DNA of 64,000 bases from a virus, in IMG/VR virus record IMGVR_UViG_3300011921_000005, positions 4,354 through 68,353 of that record. One strand, written 5' to 3'. Below, one piece after another: positions 469-55,961 of this stretch. Numbering within the stretch: position 1 is the stretch's first letter; every line of letters begins with the position of its first letter. Both the position numbers and the translations under genes were made by a program. The notes under the pieces were generated by a model. It was not told where the DNA came from. It ran no database searches and was given only the letters and a program-made list of their open reading frames with translations.

Positions 469-1641
469 TTAGAGAGCAGCGATTGATGAGCCTGATTCGA
501 TGCGGTATAGGGCAGCCTCGCGGTAGCGATTCCATCCGATAACACCGTACCAACCGATTGGGCGGAAGCGCATCAACTTATCGGTAATTGGTCCGATAAC
601 AACTGATGGCTCTTGTGCAACAGCCTCAGCCAATGCCTGCTTTCCAGCAAGGATTGTGTCGAATACGCGGGTTACAGGTGTAACAGTTACAACAGTTGTT
701 GCTGTGACTGCAGCGGTGTTCGCTGTGTCAACAGTAATTGTTGTTGTTGAACCTGATGTTGCGATAGCAGAAATCTTAGCGCCTGTAGCGACACCTGTTC
801 CTGAAATCTTGTCGCCGACCTCTGCACGAGATGCGATGACTGATGTTGAAGCAACACCAAAGGTGAAGCCTGCTGATGTACCAGCAACAGTTACTGCTGT
901 TGTAGCGAGTGCTGTCTGGTCTGCACCTGACTTGCTTGAGAACATGCGTGGGTTTTCAATGAAGAAAGCACCTTCGTATGTACCGATTGAACCTGCGAAG
1001 AGGTTGCCAAGTGATGCATCTGTGTGCTGGTGTGTGTCACGCCAGCCGATGTTTCCTGTCTCAGCACGAAGGTCGTGTGAAACTTCTGGGTGGATACCTG
1101 TCCAGTATAGGCTTCCTGCACGAGGAACAGCCTTGTTTGTGCGCAACTTAGCAACTGCCTTGCGAAGGTTAGCAGATGTGATTGTCATACCTGATGTAAC
1201 TGTCGCTGTTGATGTTGCTGTGCCTGAATAGATAACATTGACACCGTTGACGAGCGCTTGCTGTGCAATGTCGTCAAGTGAGTCTGCCATGTTGTAAGCG
1301 ATGATGTCAGCGATTGCTGGGTCAACATCTGAGAGTGAGAGCAACTCTAACTTACGGGTTGCAAGTGCTGCGTTACCCTGTTCGTTGAGAGTTACTGATA
1401 CTGTAGAAACATCTGGTAGTGCTACTGCATCTACATCTGTTGTTTCTGAAAGAGCAGCAGTTGCTGCAGCCAAGTCATTGTAAAGTGAGAATACAACGCT
1501 TGAACCTGGCATCGCCTGCTGTACTGGGCGCTTGTCCGCTACTGCACGAATCATCGGCGTATCGCGGAGGGCAAATTCTACATAACGGTCATAAGCGGTC
1601 TTGACAAGACCAGCCATGGATGTTGTGTCTGTATATGCCAT
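469..1641 (-). CDS. Major capsid protein, phage X (HK97 fold, N4-gp56/P22-coat-like family)
   Basis: 390 aa; YDRYVEFALR, HPEVSHDLR, GEIG-like GSIGTYEG, PIGWYG motifs; strong GGAGGTG SD; follows the scaffold-like gene; homologue at 40312..41523. Confidence 0.9.
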   Translation of the reverse strand: MAYTDTTSMAGLVKTAYDRYVEFALRDTPMIRAVADKRPVQQAMPGSSVVFSLYNDLAAATAALSETTDVDAVALPDVSTVSVTLNEQGNAALATRKLELLSLSDVDPAIADIIAYNMADSLDDIAQQALVNGVNVIYSGTATSTATVTSGMTITSANLRKAVAKLRTNKAVPRAGSLYWTGIHPEVSHDLRAETGNIGWRDTHQHTDASLGNLFAGSIGTYEGAFFIENPRMFSSKSGADQTALATTAVTVAGTSAGFTFGVASTSVIASRAEVGDKISGTGVATGAKISAIATSGSTTTITVDTANTAAVTATTVVTVTPVTRVFDTILAGKQALAEAVAQEPSVVIGPITDKLMRFRPIGWYGVIGWNRYREAALYRIESGSSIAAL

Positions 1642-1682
1642 GTGGGTTCACCTCCTGGTGATTGGTTAGTTGGTTGGGTTAA

Positions 1683-2135
1683 TTACAAACCAAGGAGTGC
1701 ATCTAGTTCATCGCGTGACTTTGCTTGAAGAACTCTCGACATAGAATCTTGGTCAAGGCTTGGAGCCTGACCAGTAGCAACCATGTTGTTAATTCTTGCT
1801 TGAGCAGTCACATCTTGAGACTGTTGTGTTGGCTGAGATTCAGCCTGGGTTGTCGCTCCAAATACATCGCCATACTCTGTAATCCATTGGTTGATTGCTT
1901 CTTCCGAAGTATCAATATCCTGTGGTACAAAGGCTGCAATCTTTGGATTCAATCCCTTTGCTTGTAGCACATCCTTGACAGTACGCTGACGGGTCTGTGA
2001 CTTAAGACCTAACAACTCCTGTTCTAGTTCCTTTGCACGCTTTTCAAGCGCACGGTTTACTTTGCGGAGTTGATTGATGCCAGTATCTGTACTGGTGTCA
2101 TCATCTTCGTCATCGTATTCATAGTTGGTAGCCAT
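1683..2135 (-). CDS. Putative capsid scaffolding protein, phage X
   Basis: Acidic N-terminus, coiled coil (QLRKVNRALEKRAKELEQEL), directly upstream of MCP; homologue 41563..42042. Confidence 0.75.
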   Translation of the reverse strand: MATNYEYDDEDDDTSTDTGINQLRKVNRALEKRAKELEQELLGLKSQTRQRTVKDVLQAKGLNPKIAAFVPQDIDTSEEAINQWITEYGDVFGATTQAESQPTQQSQDVTAQARINNMVATGQAPSLDQDSMSRVLQAKSRDELDALLGL

Positions 2136-2152
2136 CTACCTATCTCCCTTTG

Positions 2153-2253
2153 TTAGTTGTATTCGCAATCCACAATGCAGTTCGGGGAAACTACCTTGGC
2201 TATTGCTCCCAGTCTTATACGCCCCCCTGGGCTGGTCGGTCAGGGTGGGGATT
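2153..2253 (-). ncRNA. Conserved structured RNA element upstream of the scaffold gene (copy X)
   Basis: Invariant loops ACCGACCAGCC, AGACTGGGAG and TTTCCCCGAA shared with 42066..42164; stems differ in sequence but still pair. Confidence 0.75.
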
Positions 2254-2256
2254 CTT

Positions 2257-3672
2257 TTATACTAAGTCGGTGGACTTAAGCGATGTGCTTGTCACACCTG
2301 AACGCCCGCCGAAGCGAGTAATAACTTCTCGCTCAGCACGCTTCTGTGAAGCAAGTTGGTTCTCTATATCGCGACCAACGACACCTCTAATTGCCTCAAG
2401 GTCTGAGTATTGCTGACCTTCGATACGAGCCAATCGGCTTTGCTGGTCTGATAGAAGTTTGGCTTGCTCAAAGGATTGTTGGATTGTCTGGTAGTCCTGT
2501 TCTCCAACAGCACCACGAAGTTCCTCGGCAACTGGCATAGATACTGCGGACTTAAATCCTGCAGCCAAACCAGCAGCACCAATCTCAGCAAGGCGAACCT
2601 GCTTCTTAATAACATCCATACCCTTTGTAGGATTCAATAGGTATGCAGTCAATGCGTTGTTATCTACCTCTGGGTAGAAAGTCTTGAACTGTTTAACAAC
2701 ATCTGGATTATCCTTGACACGAGTTGCAGCAAGGTTGACTCGCTCCTCAAACTCACGAGGACTAACCAGATTAGCAATGTAAGTACCAAGTTCTTTACGG
2801 GTTCCAAGGACTTCTGGCTCCAATCCATAGGCTGCAAGGGTCTGTAAGTAACCCTTCTCCATTGAGATATATGTAGCCTCTGACACAGCCTGACCTGCAG
2901 CACGGAGTGCTTCCATGCCAGGGAATCGCAACTTGTATGCGTTAGTCTTAGGTAGTTCAAACTTAATCTGTGAAACTGTGTAGTCGTTTCTAATCAATTC
3001 ATCTACGGCATCAGCCAAATCGCCAAGCCCAAACTCTGCAAGAGTTGCACGGAACTCCTGTTGCGCTGTACGCCTTTGTGCTACTACTGCTTCTGCCTTA
3101 GCCTTATCTGTTGCAGCCTGTTGTGCTGCTGCTAAGTCTGTAGTCTTTTTGGTTGACCAAGTTGAAACAAAAGCACTTAGTTCTGCTTGTGAGTTAAATG
3201 TTCTAACGGCTCCAGTATCAGGGTCAGTCCATGTAAAGGTTTGCGCTCCACCTGTTGAGCCTGTTCCACCAGTACCACCTGTGCTACCGCCGAAACCACC
3301 GCCGTTGCTAAAGTTTACTCTTGCCCAGGTTCTGTTTCTTTCTTGCCAGACCCAACGATTGCCTGGTCCTGGGTCCTCTGTAGGCTTGTTAGCAAATGCA
3401 GCATCACGAGCAGCACGGTCTGCATTTTGTGCAGTAAGAACATCACCAAGTTTTGTACCAACTTCTGCTGTAATACCACTACGGCTGCTTGTTACAGTTG
3501 TGGGTGTAGCAGCAGGCGCAGGAGTAGGTGTTGTAGCACCAAACATTGGGTTGCCAGAGCCGTAAGTAAAGTTTGATGTTGGGGCTGGAGACATGCCAAG
3601 GAGTTTGCGCTCTTCGTTAGTAAGTGTCTGACCACTTGTTAATTTGCGTAAAGCATCTGATGCATTAGCCAT
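2257..3672 (-). CDS. Putative internal virion/ejection protein
   Basis: 471 aa; low-complexity N-terminal half; C-terminal domain (YKLRFPG...SEATY...LAEIGAA) homologous to 42169..43614; lies between portal and scaffold genes. Confidence 0.6.
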   Translation of the reverse strand: MANASDALRKLTSGQTLTNEERKLLGMSPAPTSNFTYGSGNPMFGATTPTPAPAATPTTVTSSRSGITAEVGTKLGDVLTAQNADRAARDAAFANKPTEDPGPGNRWVWQERNRTWARVNFSNGGGFGGSTGGTGGTGSTGGAQTFTWTDPDTGAVRTFNSQAELSAFVSTWSTKKTTDLAAAQQAATDKAKAEAVVAQRRTAQQEFRATLAEFGLGDLADAVDELIRNDYTVSQIKFELPKTNAYKLRFPGMEALRAAGQAVSEATYISMEKGYLQTLAAYGLEPEVLGTRKELGTYIANLVSPREFEERVNLAATRVKDNPDVVKQFKTFYPEVDNNALTAYLLNPTKGMDVIKKQVRLAEIGAAGLAAGFKSAVSMPVAEELRGAVGEQDYQTIQQSFEQAKLLSDQQSRLARIEGQQYSDLEAIRGVVGRDIENQLASQKRAEREVITRFGGRSGVTSTSLKSTDLV

Positions 3673-11670: not shown

Positions 11671-11709
11671 GATTACCTCTATGCTAAATTAGCGCTCTTG
11701 TGAATAATT

Positions 11710-11740
11710 GTGAGCCTTTTAATGTCAAATGCTCAGGACT
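11710..11740 (-). ncRNA. Candidate small H-type pseudoknot (copy 1)
   Basis: Minus strand AGTC-CTGAGC-ATTT-GAC-ATTAAAAG-GCTCAC; same layout at 32926..32954. Confidence 0.45.
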
Positions 11741-11804
11741 ATTTGATGTGTTAATCGCGGTTATCAACCCACTAACTCTGCTTTTCATAGCAGCCGATTA
11801 TGTA

Positions 11805-11978
11805 TTACTTGTTCTTTGAACCGCGTGTTCCGCTTGGTGCATTGGTCTGATAGACCTTGCCACCCTTAGAGGATGCCTTCTTCGCTGTCATTGGCTTCTG
11901 GTAGTTAGGCTTTCCTGCTGTGCCTTGGTTAGCAGGCTTCTTGCTGTAGCCCTTCTTAAGTGCTGATGCTTTCTTCAT
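11805..11978 (-). CDS. Small Lys-rich protein (57 aa, below the ORF-track cut-off)
   Basis: Hand-translated MKKASALKKGYSKKPANQGTAGKPNYQKPMTAKKASSKGGKVYQTNAPSGTRGSKNK; strong SD GGAGGTG. Confidence 0.75.
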   Translation of the reverse strand: MKKASALKKGYSKKPANQGTAGKPNYQKPMTAKKASSKGGKVYQTNAPSGTRGSKNK

Positions 11979-11990
11979 TTGTTCACCTCC

Positions 11991-15697: not shown

Positions 15698-16231
15698 ACC
15701 GAAACGCAGTAAAGGAAGTTTCGGGTGTATCTCCTAACCGTAGGCGTAGTCTAAACGAAGCCGAAGGTTAGGGCTTCTCTTAGGGTGCGACCCCCAGGGT
15801 CGCTGCTAGTGTGTGGAGAGGCTCCGATTATTTCGCCTCTCACTTATACTATAGGTGTCCAAAAGGTCCTTAGCGGACACTTTTGTCCAAAGTTTTTTTA
15901 CGGGTTTTTTGCCTACGGCAAAAGTGCTGGTCAGAGGCATATAGTGACCCCAGAACTATCAAAGTTATGTGGGTAGATACACATACACATACACACCACG
16001 GATTTAACAATCCTGGGGTGAAGCATGCACGCTCACTCATCTACTTTCCATGCTGGCTTGGCATTGCTTGCAGGGCTAAGCGGTGCAGGCTTGAAGGGCT
16101 AGGGCAGGGCTTGGCTTTCACTCTTGATTCACTCGCGCTCAATATGCCCCGCGCCCCCCGCATTGCTTGCCCGATTGCCCCGCATGCTTGCCGTCTCAAT
16201 ATGTGAGACACCTACCCCCTCACGCTCGCCA

Positions 16232-16247
16232 TGTGATGTTCGTCACA
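16232..16247. promoter_or_regulatory. CRP/GlxR-type box
   Basis: TGTGA-TGTTCG-TCACA, perfect consensus; TTGACA at 16274-16279 downstream. Confidence 0.7.
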
Positions 16248-16273
16248 TTTTCAAGATTGAGCGTGTTAGGTGC

Positions 16274-16304
16274 TTGACACCGCATAAACGGCGGGTGTAG
16301 AAAT
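16274..16304 (+). promoter_or_regulatory. Putative early promoter
   Basis: Perfect -35 TTGACA and a weak -10 (TAGAAA) upstream of the first early gene. Confidence 0.5.
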
Positions 16305-16357
16305 CTCTCATGGCTTAAGTCATCGGGGCTTAAGACTCAAGAACAGGAGAACAAGAA

Positions 16358-16993
16358 ATGACCGCAACAACCGCAACCAAGGCGAACAAGGCAAGCAAGG
16401 CAGAAGCACTCTCAACAATCACCAAGGCACTAGAACAGGCTCACGAGATTATCAAGGCAGAAACAGGGGCACCCCGCGCAACTCTTCTCGTGACTCGCGA
16501 CCTCAAGGGGCGCAAGGGTCACTTCACACCCTTCACACCTTGGAAGGCGGGGGAAGAATCTTTCTCGGAAATCGCTTTCAATCTTGAACACTTCACAACC
16601 CCCGAGGAACTTCTCTCAACACTTCTCCACGAGGTGGCTCACTCAATGAATCACATGAACGGGATTGAAGATTGCTCAAGCAACCAATACCACAACAAGC
16701 ACTTTAAGACTCAAGCCGAGGCACTCGGTCTTAAGACACTAGAAATCAAGGGCAAGGGGCACGCCTCAACAGAACTCACCGAGTTTGGCGCTAAGCGATG
16801 GGCTAAGGCGCTTAAGGTGCTTTCAAATGCTTTCGACTTGGTGGCACTTGGTGGCGAATCTGCCAAGAAGAAGGGGCGCAATACGAATCTCCTCAAGGCA
16901 ATGTGTCCATGTGAGCAGGTAATCCGCGCCTCTCGTGGCGTGATTGAAGCGGGCGTGCGTTGCGATATGTGCGGGTGCCAATTCGTGGCTTAA
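16358..16993 (+). CDS. SprT-like zinc metalloprotease-fold protein
   Basis: LLHEVAHSMNH (HExxH plus third His) and a C-terminal CPC...CDMC zinc finger. Confidence 0.8.
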   Translation: MTATTATKANKASKAEALSTITKALEQAHEIIKAETGAPRATLLVTRDLKGRKGHFTPFTPWKAGEESFSEIAFNLEHFTTPEELLSTLLHEVAHSMNHMNGIEDCSSNQYHNKHFKTQAEALGLKTLEIKGKGHASTELTEFGAKRWAKALKVLSNAFDLVALGGESAKKKGRNTNLLKAMCPCEQVIRASRGVIEAGVRCDMCGCQFVA

Positions 16994-17002
16994 GACAGAA
17001 AA

Positions 17003-17077
17003 GCCCCCCGCCCGATAAGTCGGCGCAGGCTCGCGACCTACGGGGGGCACGACATAGGGAGAAAGTCTCCTTATGAC
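17003..17077 (+). ncRNA. tRNA-like mini-element plus 3' hairpin (copy 1)
   Basis: GCCCCCC/GGGGGGC stem, CCGA-TAAG-TCGG arm, AGG-CTCGCGA-CCT arm, then ACGA; followed by CATAGGGAGA-AAG-TCTCCTTATG. Confidence 0.55.
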
Positions 17078-17099
17078 TTAAGACAGGAGAAAGGGGCTA

Positions 17100-17300
17100 G
17101 TGATGACAATCACAGCAACTAACTACAAGGGGCGCGTTTGGACATGCGACCACCACAACGCCAAGATTGAGGCGATGATTAACGAGGGAAAGACAGCCGA
17201 GGCGATGGCTCTCGTTAATGTCTTAAGCCCCAAGAAATCGCGGGGAATCTGCGCCGAGTGTCGGCGCTTATGGCAAGAGACACCGCCAATGAATCGGTGA
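17100..17300 (+). CDS. Small early protein with possible Zn ligands
   Basis: 66 aa, CDHH and CAEC; SD GACAGGAGA. Confidence 0.65.
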   Translation: MMTITATNYKGRVWTCDHHNAKIEAMINEGKTAEAMALVNVLSPKKSRGICAECRRLWQETPPMNR

Positions 17301-17311
17301 CTTAAGACACA

Positions 17312-17379
17312 GCCCCCGCCGATAGGGTACGGATTCACAATCCAACGGGGGCACGAACTCTCAACCTAAAGTTGAGGGT
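17312..17379 (+). ncRNA. tRNA-like mini-element plus 3' hairpin (copy 2)
   Basis: GCCCCCG/CGGGGGC, CC-GATA-GG, GGA-TTCACAA-TCC, then ACGA; followed by CTCTCAAC-CTAAA-GTTGAGGG. Confidence 0.55.
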
Positions 17380-17383
17380 TAGG

Positions 17384-17415
17384 TGTGACCAACATCACAC
17401 GCAAAATGATTGACA
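17384..17415 (+). promoter_or_regulatory. CRP/GlxR-type box plus TTGACA
   Basis: TGTGA-CCAACA-TCACA (17384-17399), 10 nt, TTGACA (17410-17415). Confidence 0.7.
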
Positions 17416-17499
17416 CGCTCAATCACCGCGTGAGAAGGTTACACCAAGCAAGAACACGACAGGCAGAGCGCAGGTTGTGTATTAAGACAGGAGATAAAA

Positions 17500-17820
17500 A
17501 TGTCAGAAGAAGTAAAGACAGCAAGCCAGCAATTCGCAGATGACTATCTGCTAGTGGTTGAAAATGACCGCGAAGGATGGGATGAGATTACTCAAGAAGC
17601 CCGCCGAGTTAAGTACAACATGCCAGAACTCAGCGACTCAATCCGCGAACAGTTCGAGACTCTTGCCTCTCAGGTTATAGAAAACTCAGAAGAAGAAATC
17701 ACAGAGTTTGGCGCTAATGTCTTAAGACAGGTACTCATCGGCATGGGTTCATCAACTTTCGACATCATCGCTCGCGAAGTAATCGCCCGCGATAAAGAGA
17801 CACTAGGAATTGAGGCTTAA
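17500..17820 (+). CDS. Hypothetical early protein
   Basis: 106 aa acidic ORF; SD GACAGGAGA. Confidence 0.7.
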   Translation: MSEEVKTASQQFADDYLLVVENDREGWDEITQEARRVKYNMPELSDSIREQFETLASQVIENSEEEITEFGANVLRQVLIGMGSSTFDIIAREVIARDKETLGIEA

Positions 17821-17823
17821 GAC

Positions 17824-17967
17824 ATGAAAATCACATACGAAATTTATTCAAAAGTCGGCAACTTCGCAGGCTCCAACACAACGGACAGCCTGGCAAAGAT
17901 GGCAGAGATTCGCCACTTACTGGAGAGTAATAACCAAGCCTGCACAATCACAAAGATTGAGGAGTAA
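17824..17967 (+). CDS. Small early protein (47 aa)
   Basis: Hand-translated MKITYEIYSKVGNFAGSNTT...; starts in the TAA-GAC-ATG junction. Confidence 0.55.
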   Translation: MKITYEIYSKVGNFAGSNTTDSLAKMAEIRHLLESNNQACTITKIEE

Positions 17968-17984
17968 TCGGTATTAAGACACAA

Positions 17985-18000
17985 TGTGACTAATATCACA
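17985..18000. promoter_or_regulatory. CRP/GlxR-type box
   Basis: TGTGA-CTAATA-TCACA, perfect consensus. Confidence 0.7.
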
Positions 18001-20807: not shown

Positions 20808-21161
20808 ATGAGTAAGTTTCAACCAAAGCACCACCGAGTTATAGCAGTAAGAGGTAGCCTCAATAGATACGGCAAAGGGTTAGTGTCTTATGTCTTAAGA
20901 TATAACGCACGCCTCTGGGATGGGGCAACATGTCGAGGCATAGACACCGATGTCTTTTACCCAGCGCAAGAACTATTTAGTCGTGATGAAGAGCGCATGT
21001 TCAAACGCATGTGTGCCGATTGTCCAGCGATGGATGCTTGCTTGGAGTGGGGCTTAGCCCACGAAAGGTACGGCGTATGGGGTGGCACTACACCACCAAT
21101 GCGACACAAGATGAGAAAGACTTTAGGATTGGCTATCGCAGACCCACAGCACAATCCATGA
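20808..21161 (+). CDS. whiB: WhiB-family Fe-S transcription factor
   Basis: C...MCADCPAMDAC...GVWGGTT signature. Confidence 0.92.
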   Translation: MSKFQPKHHRVIAVRGSLNRYGKGLVSYVLRYNARLWDGATCRGIDTDVFYPAQELFSRDEERMFKRMCADCPAMDACLEWGLAHERYGVWGGTTPPMRHKMRKTLGLAIADPQHNP

Positions 21162-21759: not shown

Positions 21760-21890
21760 TACCACTCACCACCAATCCACCAAAATCCTAGGTCAATGTT
21801 CCACATCTTAAAGCGTGGGCTTATGTCAAAACCAATACCAAAGCCAGACTTCTTGCCTGCTTGTAGCCAATACTTTCTAATCATCTTCAT
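21759..21890 (-). CDS. Small Trp/Gly-rich protein (43 aa)
   Basis: Hand-translated MKMIRKYWLQAGKKSGFGIGFDISPRFKMWNIDLGFWWIGGEW; fills the gap with coupled start and stop. Confidence 0.6.
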   Translation of the reverse strand: MKMIRKYWLQAGKKSGFGIGFDISPRFKMWNIDLGFWWIGGEW

Positions 21891-22555
21891 TACAAATCCC
21901 TCACTTCTTCTCTCGCTTGTGCATTAGAACTGCGGTGTTGTCGCCATACTGGTTGCTCTCCGCCGAGTCTATCTTGTAACTTAGTCAGCGCTCGCTTGAC
22001 TCTCTTACGCATGGCTTCTTCTGTTGTGCCGTAGGTTTCAGCCAGCGCGCCAAGTTCCATACCACCATCGTCATAGCGTAGGCGTAGCAACTCTCTATCT
22101 GTGTCCGATAGTTTCTTAAGACCTGATGCTACATCTGCTAGCAATGCCATGCGATTGCCACCTTCGCTTGGTTTACTGGAGCGAGATACAAATTCATTAC
22201 TTAAGTCAGGAGTATCTGTCCATCCTATGTGTGACCACACATCGCGCAGTAATTCATGCAATACCTCATGTGAGTAATAGAAAGTATCTGACATAGGCGA
22301 ACGCGAGTAGCGCGAGCGCTCTTTTGCTGCATACTTCTGTGCTTCATTGAAGAAAGTCTTACGCAGTTTGTACTTAAGACTCTCCTCTGCTTCCCATTGT
22401 TCTATCTTGTTCCAATGTTCTAGCGCCCACAAAGACAGGTGTTGGTACAGGTCATCAACAGTTACCAGGTTGCGGTGCATGCGATTACTACGGGTGGCAA
22501 CCTGCCGTGCCACACCATAGATTGTTTCCCATACCTTGTCCTGATTCTCACTCAT
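21890..22555 (-). CDS. Sigma-70/ECF-like RNA polymerase sigma factor
   Basis: Region-2-like DDLYQHLSLW and region-4 HTH (LSDTDRELLRLRY...ELGALAETYGTTEEAMRKRVKRAL). Confidence 0.75.
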   Translation of the reverse strand: MSENQDKVWETIYGVARQVATRSNRMHRNLVTVDDLYQHLSLWALEHWNKIEQWEAEESLKYKLRKTFFNEAQKYAAKERSRYSRSPMSDTFYYSHEVLHELLRDVWSHIGWTDTPDLSNEFVSRSSKPSEGGNRMALLADVASGLKKLSDTDRELLRLRYDDGGMELGALAETYGTTEEAMRKRVKRALTKLQDRLGGEQPVWRQHRSSNAQAREEVRDL

Positions 22556-41523: not shown

Positions 41524-41562
41524 TTATTGCACCTCCTTCTGAGGGTTTAGTTCGGTTGAGTT

Positions 41563-42042
41563 TTACTGAAATTCGCCCGATTGAATCATTGCAATAATCT
41601 CATCAGCGCTTTGAGCGTTGTTAAGACGTAGCAATGTGTCATCTGAGCGGTCAGGCGTAAACGCCTGCTGAGTAACAATGTCCTGCTGGCGTAATGCCGC
41701 ACGGTCAATTGTTTGTTCAGGCGTCTGTTGCTGACGTACTTGTAGTCCGAATACTTCGGCGTTATCATCAACCCAGTTAGAAACTGAATCTTCTGTAATG
41801 TCACCATCTAGTTCACGGACAATCAAGCGTGCAGCCTTTGGACTTACGCCTTTATCTTCTAGGACTTTCTTAATGACGGTCTCACGTTGAGCCTTATCAA
41901 AGGCTTCAAGTTTTTCTGTGAGTTCTTTAATACGCTTCTCATCTGCACGCTTAGCCTTACGCAATTGTTTCATTGCATCGCCATCATTCAGTGGAGTTGT
42001 ATCCATTTCGTCTTCTTCTTCGTCCCAGTATTGGTTGGTCAT
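41563..42042 (-). CDS. Putative capsid scaffolding protein, phage Y
   Basis: Start moved to MTNQYW (SD GGGAG); homologue of 1683..2135. Confidence 0.75.
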   Translation of the reverse strand: MTNQYWDEEEDEMDTTPLNDGDAMKQLRKAKRADEKRIKELTEKLEAFDKAQRETVIKKVLEDKGVSPKAARLIVRELDGDITEDSVSNWVDDNAEVFGLQVRQQQTPEQTIDRAALRQQDIVTQQAFTPDRSDDTLLRLNNAQSADEIIAMIQSGEFQ

Positions 42043-42065
42043 AGCAACCGTTCTCCCATTCTTCA

Positions 42066-42164
42066 TTAGTTGAATCGCAGACCACAACATAGTTCGGGGA
42101 AACTGTGTTGGCTTCTACTCCCAGTCTGTTACGCCGTACGGGGCTGGTCGGTCCGTTCGGGATT
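42066..42164 (-). ncRNA. Conserved structured RNA element upstream of the scaffold gene (copy Y)
   Basis: Same loops as 2153..2253 with compensatory stem changes. Confidence 0.75.
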
Positions 42165-42168
42165 TTAG

Positions 42169-54960: not shown

Positions 54961-55033
54961 TGGCGCCCCAGGAGGAATTGAACCCCTACCTCAGGGTACG
55001 TAACCCTGCGTTCTCTCCGTTAAACTATGAGGC
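54961..55033 (-). tRNA. tRNA-Arg(ACG), atypical
   Basis: D arm GTTT/GAAC with G18G19A20; anticodon arm CAGGG-TTACGTA-CCCTG; T loop TTCAATT; encoded CCA; 6-bp acceptor stem. Confidence 0.8.
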
Positions 55034-55961
55034 TATGTTGGATAGTTACTTCAATACGTTGGTCTCGTCAGACCAGTCGGGATACGAACCCTGTCCGCCC
55101 ACTACTCTTGATTTCGTGGGTATGCAAGCCTACACCTTTAACGTACCTTTTTACCACCAAGCAGATATTCCACTTTCTGCGAGAGGTGTGAGCCTCTGCT
55201 TGATGTCCAACAATTCTAAAATGGCAGACTATACCCGCCGTATAGAAGTATATCTGTACAACAGTATGTCACAGTATGAGGAAGGCTCTAAAAAGACTTC
55301 CGAATATAATTTACTGTACATATATACTTAATCCGTTCAAACTAACAAAACGAACTATTTAGCCATAACTATTTATAAAACAGCAGGTCAGATACTATAC
55401 TGGGGTCACTATATACAGAAATATTTATAGTCAGAGTTACCTACATATACAGGCGAACAGATTAAAACAGTAGGGGTCAAGACCCTACATGTTCTAATCT
55501 GAACAGACTGTCACTACTAGGCGTAGTCTGCGTAGAGATACTGTCTGTCGGGCTGTCGCCCCCTAAATAGATTTGTACTGACAGCCGTGCTGTATGTATA
55601 TATCTATTCAGGTTAAAGATTAAAAGACTAACTGCCTTGTCAGTGAGTCACGCATGCTGGCTGTGATACAGCGTGTCTAAAGCCACGCTCGGTATCTGCC
55701 AACCAGATGCGTTTATGTTTTAATCTATCAGTCGCCTGCATGGTAGCCCATGTGTCAAATCGGTCTATGTCTTTCCTATTCGGAAAGCCAATACTATCCC
55801 GATTGCTCTGCCCGCGGGGTGCAAGCACCCACGCGTGCTCGGCTGTCTAAAGCCATCCGCGCCCCCAGCCCAAGCATGGGCTGTGGTATGACATTCATAG
55901 GCTATCCAATTGGCGAACCGATAGATTGTCGGTGGAACTAACAAACTAAGGAGAGCACCAA

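Follow-up and report, generated by a model that had tools for sequence, protein, structure and literature searches.

What keeps a short intergenic stretch alike in two phages whose surrounding proteins have drifted far apart? The question is raised by some 100 nucleotides in front of the scaffold and major capsid genes in the window (the whole stretch of 64,000 nucleotides analysed here, part of an IMG/VR virus record). The initial annotation placed this stretch at 2153-2253 and aligned it with a second copy at 42066..42164. The alignment was confirmed once both copies (X and Y, respectively) were read on the minus strand; since the genes lie on that strand here, the element is read as the reverse complement. 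The flanking proteins are strongly diverged, as had been pointed out: identity between X and Y is 31% for the scaffold proteins, 34% (over half the length) for the upstream proteins, and 56% for the capsids. The RNA region together with its immediate flanks is ~80% identical. The record of 76,622 bases (76.6 kb) consists of two related, diverged ~38-kb phage genomes placed head to tail, so that the two copies belong to different phages; it is probably an assembly or binning chimera and not one 76-kb genome. A relative (L221) is found on a 79-kb contig. The surroundings of the two copies are as follows.

2257 to 2259, minus strand: TAA stop codon of the upstream gene (471 amino acids, phrog_8424, function unknown), directly after which the RNA begins
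2148 to 2256, minus strand: core of copy X, from which the conserved unit continues to 2127
1683 to 2135, minus strand: scaffold gene of phage X (150 amino acids, phrog_7813, weak DUF4355)
469 to 1641, minus strand: major capsid gene of phage X, downstream of the scaffold gene
42061 to 42168, minus strand: core of copy Y, with further parts down to 42033
42043 to 42168, minus strand: gap holding copy Y, with a gene layout identical to that of copy X

The extent assigned initially was thus conserved but too short, the unit running through the Shine-Dalgarno (SD) sequence into a hairpin that ends at 2127. The element fills the whole intercistronic leader of the scaffold gene (116-131 nt; ~135 nt for the leader as delimited here). 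The genes further upstream overlap stop-to-start; the leader sets the scaffold gene apart from its neighbor, which argues that this gene initiates independently.

All stems and loops listed in the initial annotation were found in both copies. The first, CCCTG/CAGGG in X versus ACGG/CCGT in Y around the loop ACCGACCAGCC, is part of hairpin P1, which has 8 bp rather than the 5 bp proposed. The second, GCAAT/ATTGC versus GTAGA/TCTGC with inner stems around TTTCCCCGAA, forms hairpin P2. From 5′ to 3′, the RNA consists of P1, a pseudoknot (PK1), P2, an unpaired A/C-rich tail, the GGGAG ribosome-binding site, and a last hairpin, P3. In copy X, these parts are:

2222 to 2248, minus strand: hairpin P1, 8 bp with a central A.G mismatch (5′ strand 2241-2248, 3′ strand 2222-2229)
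2230 to 2240, minus strand: loop L1 of P1, 11 nt, ACCGACCAGCC
2209 to 2235, minus strand: PK1, 4 bp between CCAG in L1 (2232-2235) and CUGG in the linker (2209-2212)
2165 to 2206, minus strand: long hairpin P2, 16 bp, interrupted
2202 to 2206 with 2165 to 2169, minus strand: outer 5 bp of P2
2199 to 2201 and 2170 to 2172, minus strand: internal loop of P2, AGC and UGG
2188 to 2198 with 2173 to 2183, minus strand: inner 11 bp of P2, closed by the tip CCCC (2184-2187)
2149 to 2164, minus strand: conserved, unpaired A/C-rich tail, CGAAUACAACUAACAA
2144 to 2148, minus strand: scaffold-gene SD, GGGAG, with complementarity (UUUCCC:GGGAGA) to the P2 tip
2127 to 2140, minus strand: hairpin P3, GGUAG-AUGG-CUACC, with the scaffold AUG (2133-2135) in its loop

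The counterparts in copy Y are:

42153 to 42160 with 42134 to 42141, minus strand: P1
42144 to 42147 with 42121 to 42124, minus strand: PK1
42114 to 42118 with 42077 to 42081, minus strand: outer helix of P2
42100 to 42110 with 42085 to 42095, minus strand: inner stem of P2, closed by the tip CCCC (42096-42099)
42061 to 42076, minus strand: tail
42053 to 42057, minus strand: SD GGGAG
42045 to 42049 (GGUUG) with 42033 to 42037 (CAACC), minus strand: P3 around the scaffold AUG (42040-42042)

That the stretch is a structured RNA with covariation, as the initial annotation had it, was borne out by a deeper alignment. One hundred distinct sequences were aligned to a nested model, to which the pseudoknot, absent from the search model, was added by hand. 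Standard pairs occupied 93.9% of the cells, compared with 74.1% in shuffles; 21 of the 28 pairs had changed on both sides, and neither the pairing nor the covariation score was reached by any of 500 shuffles. When the partners were slid by 1-3 columns, pairing dropped to 25-45%. P1 was 91% paired, with changes on both sides in seven of its eight pairs, and the inner helix of P2 showed such changes in 9 of 11. The outer helix of P2 was 100% paired, including G-U wobbles; at one P2 pair (CG in 62 sequences, UG in 38) G-U is clearly tolerated, which fixes the strand of the RNA. The pairing of loop CCAG with linker CUGG, suggested initially as a possible pseudoknot, held throughout: PK1 was 100% paired, three of its four pairs covaried (UA:2, UA:9, and GC:6), and the variants CUAG:CUAG, CUGG:CCAG, UCGG:CCGA, and CCGG:CCGG were all encountered. 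A structure-blind MAFFT alignment analyzed with RNAalifold returned the same helices, P1 included, with 17 of 23 pairs compensatory. In a mutual-information scan the proposed pairs ranked highest, and no tertiary pairs emerged beyond the helices listed. The folding energies of single sequences are unremarkable (z of ~0); support for the structure therefore comes from comparison between sequences and not from thermodynamics. On this comparative evidence, the conserved stretch is a real folded RNA.

Conservation is not confined to the helices. Nearly invariant unpaired positions occur in the P1 loop, in the linker (G(C/U)GUA..AG), in the internal loop (AGC/NGG), in the tip (UUCCCC), and at the start of the tail ((C/U)GCGA); in copy X, the conserved linker between P1 and CUGG reads GCGUAUAAGA. 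A connection between the UAAGAC of this linker and an early-gene octamer of phage X, TTAAGACA, was considered and dropped, as the octamer has no counterpart in Y and the hexamer is common.

Which phages carry the element was determined with a covariance model built from four copies (X, Y, and those in GenBank OX376640 and OX376641). In this search, recommended in the initial annotation, the loci had been retrieved by three different capsid queries and represented three phage clades; over all searches, more than 300 loci were found to carry the element. Every locus with enough upstream sequence contained exactly one match (E-values 1e-10 to 1e-33; copy Y scored 117.5 bits), invariably on the coding strand, ~0.5-0.6 kb upstream of where the capsid gene starts, and complete genomes had one copy each. 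Measured from the start of the match, the upstream stop codon fell between -3 and +5 nt (98 distinct contexts). The element persists where the capsid is only 35-45% identical. In some lineages small ORFs are inserted upstream, and the element still adjoins the scaffold gene; L038 (3204-3389) and L060 (1670-1790) have one or two extra small ORFs (~28-35 amino acids) between the upstream gene and the element. A DNA pattern scan that did not rely on a protein query added 116 loci, 114 of which had a scaffold homologue directly downstream (judged by BLAST coordinates); the other two end at a contig edge.

The copies in OX376640 and OX376641 belong to the Planktophila phages LanE43AprE7 and LanE43AprF5, which were the first phages of ‘Ca. 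Nanopelagicales’ (acI) to be cultured and have genomes of ~39 kb encoding WhiB and a sigma factor (PMC10202952). Phage X has the same markers: the minus strand of the window encodes, at 21890-22555, a sigma-70-family protein (region 4), and the plus strand, at 20808-21161, a WhiB-like protein. The presence of cultured Planktophila phages among the carriers, together with these shared markers, identifies the carriers as a widespread family of freshwater actinophages. When ~185,000 species genomes of cellular organisms were scanned with a strict pattern, three matches were obtained. One failed the model, one had no model match, and the only real one comes from a metagenome-assembled actinobacterial genome, on a 5.8-kb contig. 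This contig is likely of phage origin, and no element was found in 120 other genomes of the same order. Streptomyces phage Immanuel3 (L284, NC_048686.1), a distant relative with a related capsid, contains no copy of the element; at the same position, just before its scaffold-like and capsid genes, it carries 22 tRNA genes (16040-17988). Processed or structured RNAs seem to be placed preferentially at the junction before the scaffold gene.

The initial annotation could not assign the RNA to a named family, and this view stands. With the 4227 models of Rfam 15 at gathering thresholds, only a tRNA was matched in the whole window. When matches up to E ≤ 10 were allowed, there was nothing on the element in X, Y, or the divergent member L272, and chance matches to miRNAs, snoRNAs, and lncRNAs fell nearby. 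Recoding of the upstream gene (readthrough or frameshifting) by a pseudoknot 6-9 nt past its stop codon was also considered and rejected; no frame is open through the element, and the frame of the scaffold AUG relative to the upstream stop is random (43/26/29 in 98 contexts).

Other regions of the window drew attention in passing. In phage X, several G+C-rich hairpins lie in the terminase leader (15698-15900, minus strand), where the late operon begins; the corresponding leader of phage Y (54942-55330, minus strand) contains a tRNA-Arg(ACG) gene (54962-55034) and other structured-looking sequence. Farther along the late operon, the gene after terminase (609 amino acids) is separated from its successor by 320 nt (11671-11990, minus strand) that lack any coding-strand ORF of at least 60 amino acids.

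The part of the unit that lies next to the scaffold gene bears on translation initiation. The scaffold AUG was enclosed by a hairpin in each of 36 distinct start windows, in 12 different sequence forms and several registers (GGUAG-AUGG-CUACC, GUUGCU-AUG-AGCAAC, UCGCU-AUG-AGCGA, and UAGGC-UGAU-GCCUA among them), with a mean ΔG of -6.1 kcal/mol and a mean z of -1.9. Ranked by structure among the 59 gene starts of the window, the scaffold genes of X and Y came second and fourth. The A/C-rich tail of copy X had no covarying partner in the mutual-information scan and is probably a flexible spacer or a standby region. In both phages, an unpaired AACUAA-N(3-25)-GGAG arrangement stands ahead of the scaffold gene and of the capsid gene, and it also precedes a few early genes; it has eight matches in the window, compared with 2.6 expected, and may be a shared translational enhancer or standby leader. 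Its matches include:

1652 to 1671, minus strand: AACUAA-N(3-25)-GGAG
2144 to 2158, minus strand: the same arrangement
41533 to 41552, minus strand: the same arrangement
42053 to 42071, minus strand: the same arrangement
19804, 55936, and 56872, plus strand: the same arrangement

Two partners had been suggested for the C-rich tip of P2. The first, a GGGAG in the linker, does not hold up, as most members have GGUAG, GGAAG, or GGCAG at that place in the linker. The second, the SD of the scaffold gene, has limited support, from one lineage with matching changes. In most members, the predicted duplex between the UUUCCC tip and GGGAGA lies between about -7 and -11 kcal/mol. A single lineage among all the sequences inspected has an altered CCCC in the tip (CCUC; L307 and L339, from two samples), and there the SD region reads AGAGAGAGG in place of AGGGAGAGG, which puts an A opposite the new U. 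The change of CCCC to CCUC is thus linked to that of AGGG to AGAG, within a leader that has only three to four differences overall. The ancestral tip combined with the new SD region would yield only -3.8 kcal/mol; each native combination does better (-7.8 and -8.0 kcal/mol). Further members with an altered tip were sought in a wide pattern scan, and of its 118 matches only two were real members, both with CCCC. Where the SD is GGGUG (E7, F5, L281, and L285), the UUUCCCC tip is kept and one pair is lost, leaving predicted duplexes of -5 to -7 kcal/mol. When tips and SD regions were swapped among 78 distinct combinations, native pairs (-7.59 kcal/mol) did not differ significantly from swapped ones (-7.45 kcal/mol; permutation p = 0.09). 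Pairing between tip and SD is thus tentatively supported, by one evolutionary event.

The anatomy described above is best fitted by a cis-regulator of the scaffold gene. More specifically, we propose, at a probability of roughly 0.4, that the element is a cis-acting translational leader whose C-rich tip masks the ribosome-binding site. It would act in cis on the late polycistronic mRNA. A compact domain would come first, consisting of P1 locked by the loop-linker pseudoknot and followed by the long P2; an unpaired A/C-rich tail of ~17-20 nt would then lead to GGGAG, with the AUG presented in the loop of the small hairpin. By folding back onto GGGAG(A), the C-rich tip of P2 would form a second, long-range pseudoknot, and this pairing, together with the start-codon hairpin, would hold the initiation site of the scaffold gene closed. 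Initiation would require a factor that shifts the equilibrium, the leading guess being, by analogy with phage P22, unassembled scaffold or capsid protein. As a result, scaffold output could be tuned independently of the weakly expressed genes upstream. We infer both translational control and the identity of the effector. Control of the head genes, put forward in the initial annotation, would likewise be read from the fixed position before the scaffold gene, and nothing supports the packaging RNA that was suggested along with it.

Some findings do not sit easily with this proposal. About 35-40 conserved nucleotides of the element are unpaired, which is more than a simple protein operator usually needs and typical of ligand-binding or catalytic RNAs. 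The scaffold protein has an acidic N-terminus and no recognizable RNA-binding domain, and no RNA-binding regulator was recognized among the 20 proteins of phage X that were scanned.

As an alternative to masking, the element could be a module for processing and stabilizing mRNA. The late transcript would be cleaved at the element or immediately ahead of it, with host RNase III acting on the 16-bp P2 stalk or RNase E on the A-rich 5′ flank; P1 and PK1 would then cap the 5′ end of the scaffold-capsid message and block 5′-to-3′ decay by RNase J, so that this message outlives the upstream part. Exonuclease-resistant RNAs (xrRNAs) of flaviviruses and plant viruses, and the 5′ stabilizers of Bacillus phage SP82, are comparable. 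The location would suit such a function, as the element divides genes required in only a few copies from those required by the hundred; a loop paired with a segment ~10 nt downstream is also the topology of plant-virus xrRNAs, and processing of the tRNAs that take the same position in Immanuel3 would cut the transcript there. Transcript data do not clearly favor a cut. In metatranscriptome contigs from four studies, depth was in the tens to hundreds over the capsid gene, the scaffold gene, and the leader, and near zero upstream of 2257, where the upstream gene is much less conserved, so that relatives fail to map. Contig ends within the element were scattered (2151, 2187, 2219, and 2232), and true RNA ends are not visible in contigs. 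A single RNA-library contig runs through the element and on into the upstream gene, which argues against processing. Moreover, a stabilizer would leave the start-codon hairpin, the conserved C-rich tip, and the linked change of tip and SD unexplained. We regard this explanation as less likely than masking but as a serious rival.

A riboswitch would account for the size (~100 nt), the pseudoknot, and the many invariant unpaired nucleotides in loops and junctions: the junction of P1, PK1, linker, and P2 would bind a small molecule or ion reporting the state of the host and thereby shift the pairing of tip and SD, a plausible expression platform for masking the SD. Phage-carried riboswitch classes are normally also found in hosts. 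Here, a single real match, on a contig likely derived from a phage, was obtained from ~185,000 species genomes, and none from the 120 genomes of the same order; aptamers preceding metabolically coherent genes in cellular genomes, the distribution typical of riboswitches, are thus not what is observed. Three divergent members lacked an Rfam match even at E ≤ 10, the unpaired tail lies between the aptamer-like part and the SD without a shared switching helix, and a scaffold gene offers no obvious metabolite logic. These points make a riboswitch improbable.

Small ribozymes (hammerhead, twister, pistol, and hatchet) are common in phage operons, and a new self-cleaving RNA could separate the scaffold gene from the upstream genes by cutting the late transcript. 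The succession of a hairpin, a loop pseudoknot, and a second hairpin, with many invariant nucleotides, loosely recalls pistol. In the pistol ribozyme (RF02679), a pseudoknot of 6 bp joins the P1 loop to the internal loop that separates P2 from P3, and cleavage takes place at a conserved G-U past P3; in the present RNA, PK1 has 4 bp, its partner is the linker between P1 and P2, and the pistol model does not match. HDV-like ribozymes form a nested double pseudoknot (P1, P1.1, P2, P3, and P4) in which the P2 strand at the 3′ end pairs between P1 and P3. No such arrangement is present here, the 3′ tail having no covarying partner in the mutual-information scan, and neither the HDV-like nor any other Rfam ribozyme model matched. 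One RNA-library contig also spans the element uncut. A ribozyme appears slightly less probable than a riboswitch; both are possible but less likely in view of the distribution, the lack of model matches, and the spanning contig.

Finally, a trans-acting small RNA or a DNA-level signal, such as a promoter for the sigma-70-family protein that the phage itself encodes (see also PMC10202952), is very improbable, despite a TGACC-N16-CGTA in the element that loosely resembles ECF-type promoters, because P1, in which the would-be -35 and the spacer are located, covaries as RNA and is pseudoknotted with sequence downstream of the would-be -10 (the transcript must thus include the -35 and the spacer), because the G-U pairs are strand-specific, because neither a sigma-70-like promoter nor an intrinsic terminator was found flanking the element on the coding strand, and because the window contains no second site complementary to the tip.

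Masking of the ribosome-binding site, the reading we prefer, has precedents of several kinds. Reportedly, the scaffolding protein of phage P22 represses its own synthesis post-transcriptionally (Casjens, Adams, Wyckoff, and King, in J Virol in 1985). To our knowledge, the RNA target of this regulation was never defined as a structure. The gene class, the post-transcriptional level, and the long late operon in which scaffold output is matched to assembly are alike; there is no sequence relation, and binding of a protein to the present element is conjectural. The leader of T4 gene 32, an autogenous translational operator, is likewise cis-acting and likewise places a pseudoknot on the 5′ side, followed by an unstructured stretch and then the ribosome-binding site. 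That element is a small H-type pseudoknot nucleating cooperative binding of the single-strand-binding protein, whereas the RNA described here is larger (P1, PK1, and a 16-bp P2) and has a candidate second pseudoknot with the SD as well as a start-codon hairpin. The SD is paired with a loop or with a strand of a pseudoknot in the preQ1-II and SAM-II riboswitches, and in the operator hairpin at the MS2 replicase start the initiation codon is presented in a small hairpin; none of the three shows sequence or model similarity, and here the partner of the SD would be the tip of a distant hairpin. The P1/PK1 topology resembles that of the xrRNAs of plant viruses and flaviviruses, in which the loop of a hairpin pairs with a short stretch just past its 3′ side, a few nucleotides away; sequence and models do not match, so that the likeness is one of topology only. 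We know of no xrRNA shown in a bacterial context.

A structured, cis-acting phage leader with a pseudoknot is of a known kind; the architecture and the gene association found here are new. Fremin et al (2023; PMC10690425) extracted more than 10,000 candidate structured RNAs from IMG/VR, the data source used here, and their catalogue similarly contains unnamed phage motifs supported by covariation upstream of structural genes. The main text names gene 32, terminase, and one capsid family as preceded by such motifs and never mentions a scaffold gene; according to it, the gene 32 leader pseudoknot of T4 likewise has no Rfam model (PMC10690425). The element could be one of these unnamed candidates; the RNA family appears to be undescribed.

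For the phages themselves, the element adds a well-supported family to the phage RNAs absent from Rfam, and within this very abundant family of freshwater ‘Ca. Nanopelagicales’ phages it is more conserved than the proteins it precedes. With Planktophila LanE-43 and its phages E7 and F5, a cultured pair is at hand in which masking of the ribosome-binding site is directly testable. Two stronger readings, to which we give little credence at present, would carry further: that the element is a new ligand- or protein-sensing switch with two pseudoknots that masks the ribosome-binding site, or that it is a bacterial xrRNA-like or self-processing RNA that releases the scaffold-capsid message from the longer transcript and protects it. 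How tailed phages set unequal gene outputs within one long late transcript is poorly understood, and either of these, if true, would be the first defined RNA mechanism that sets the stoichiometry of scaffold and capsid in a tailed phage.
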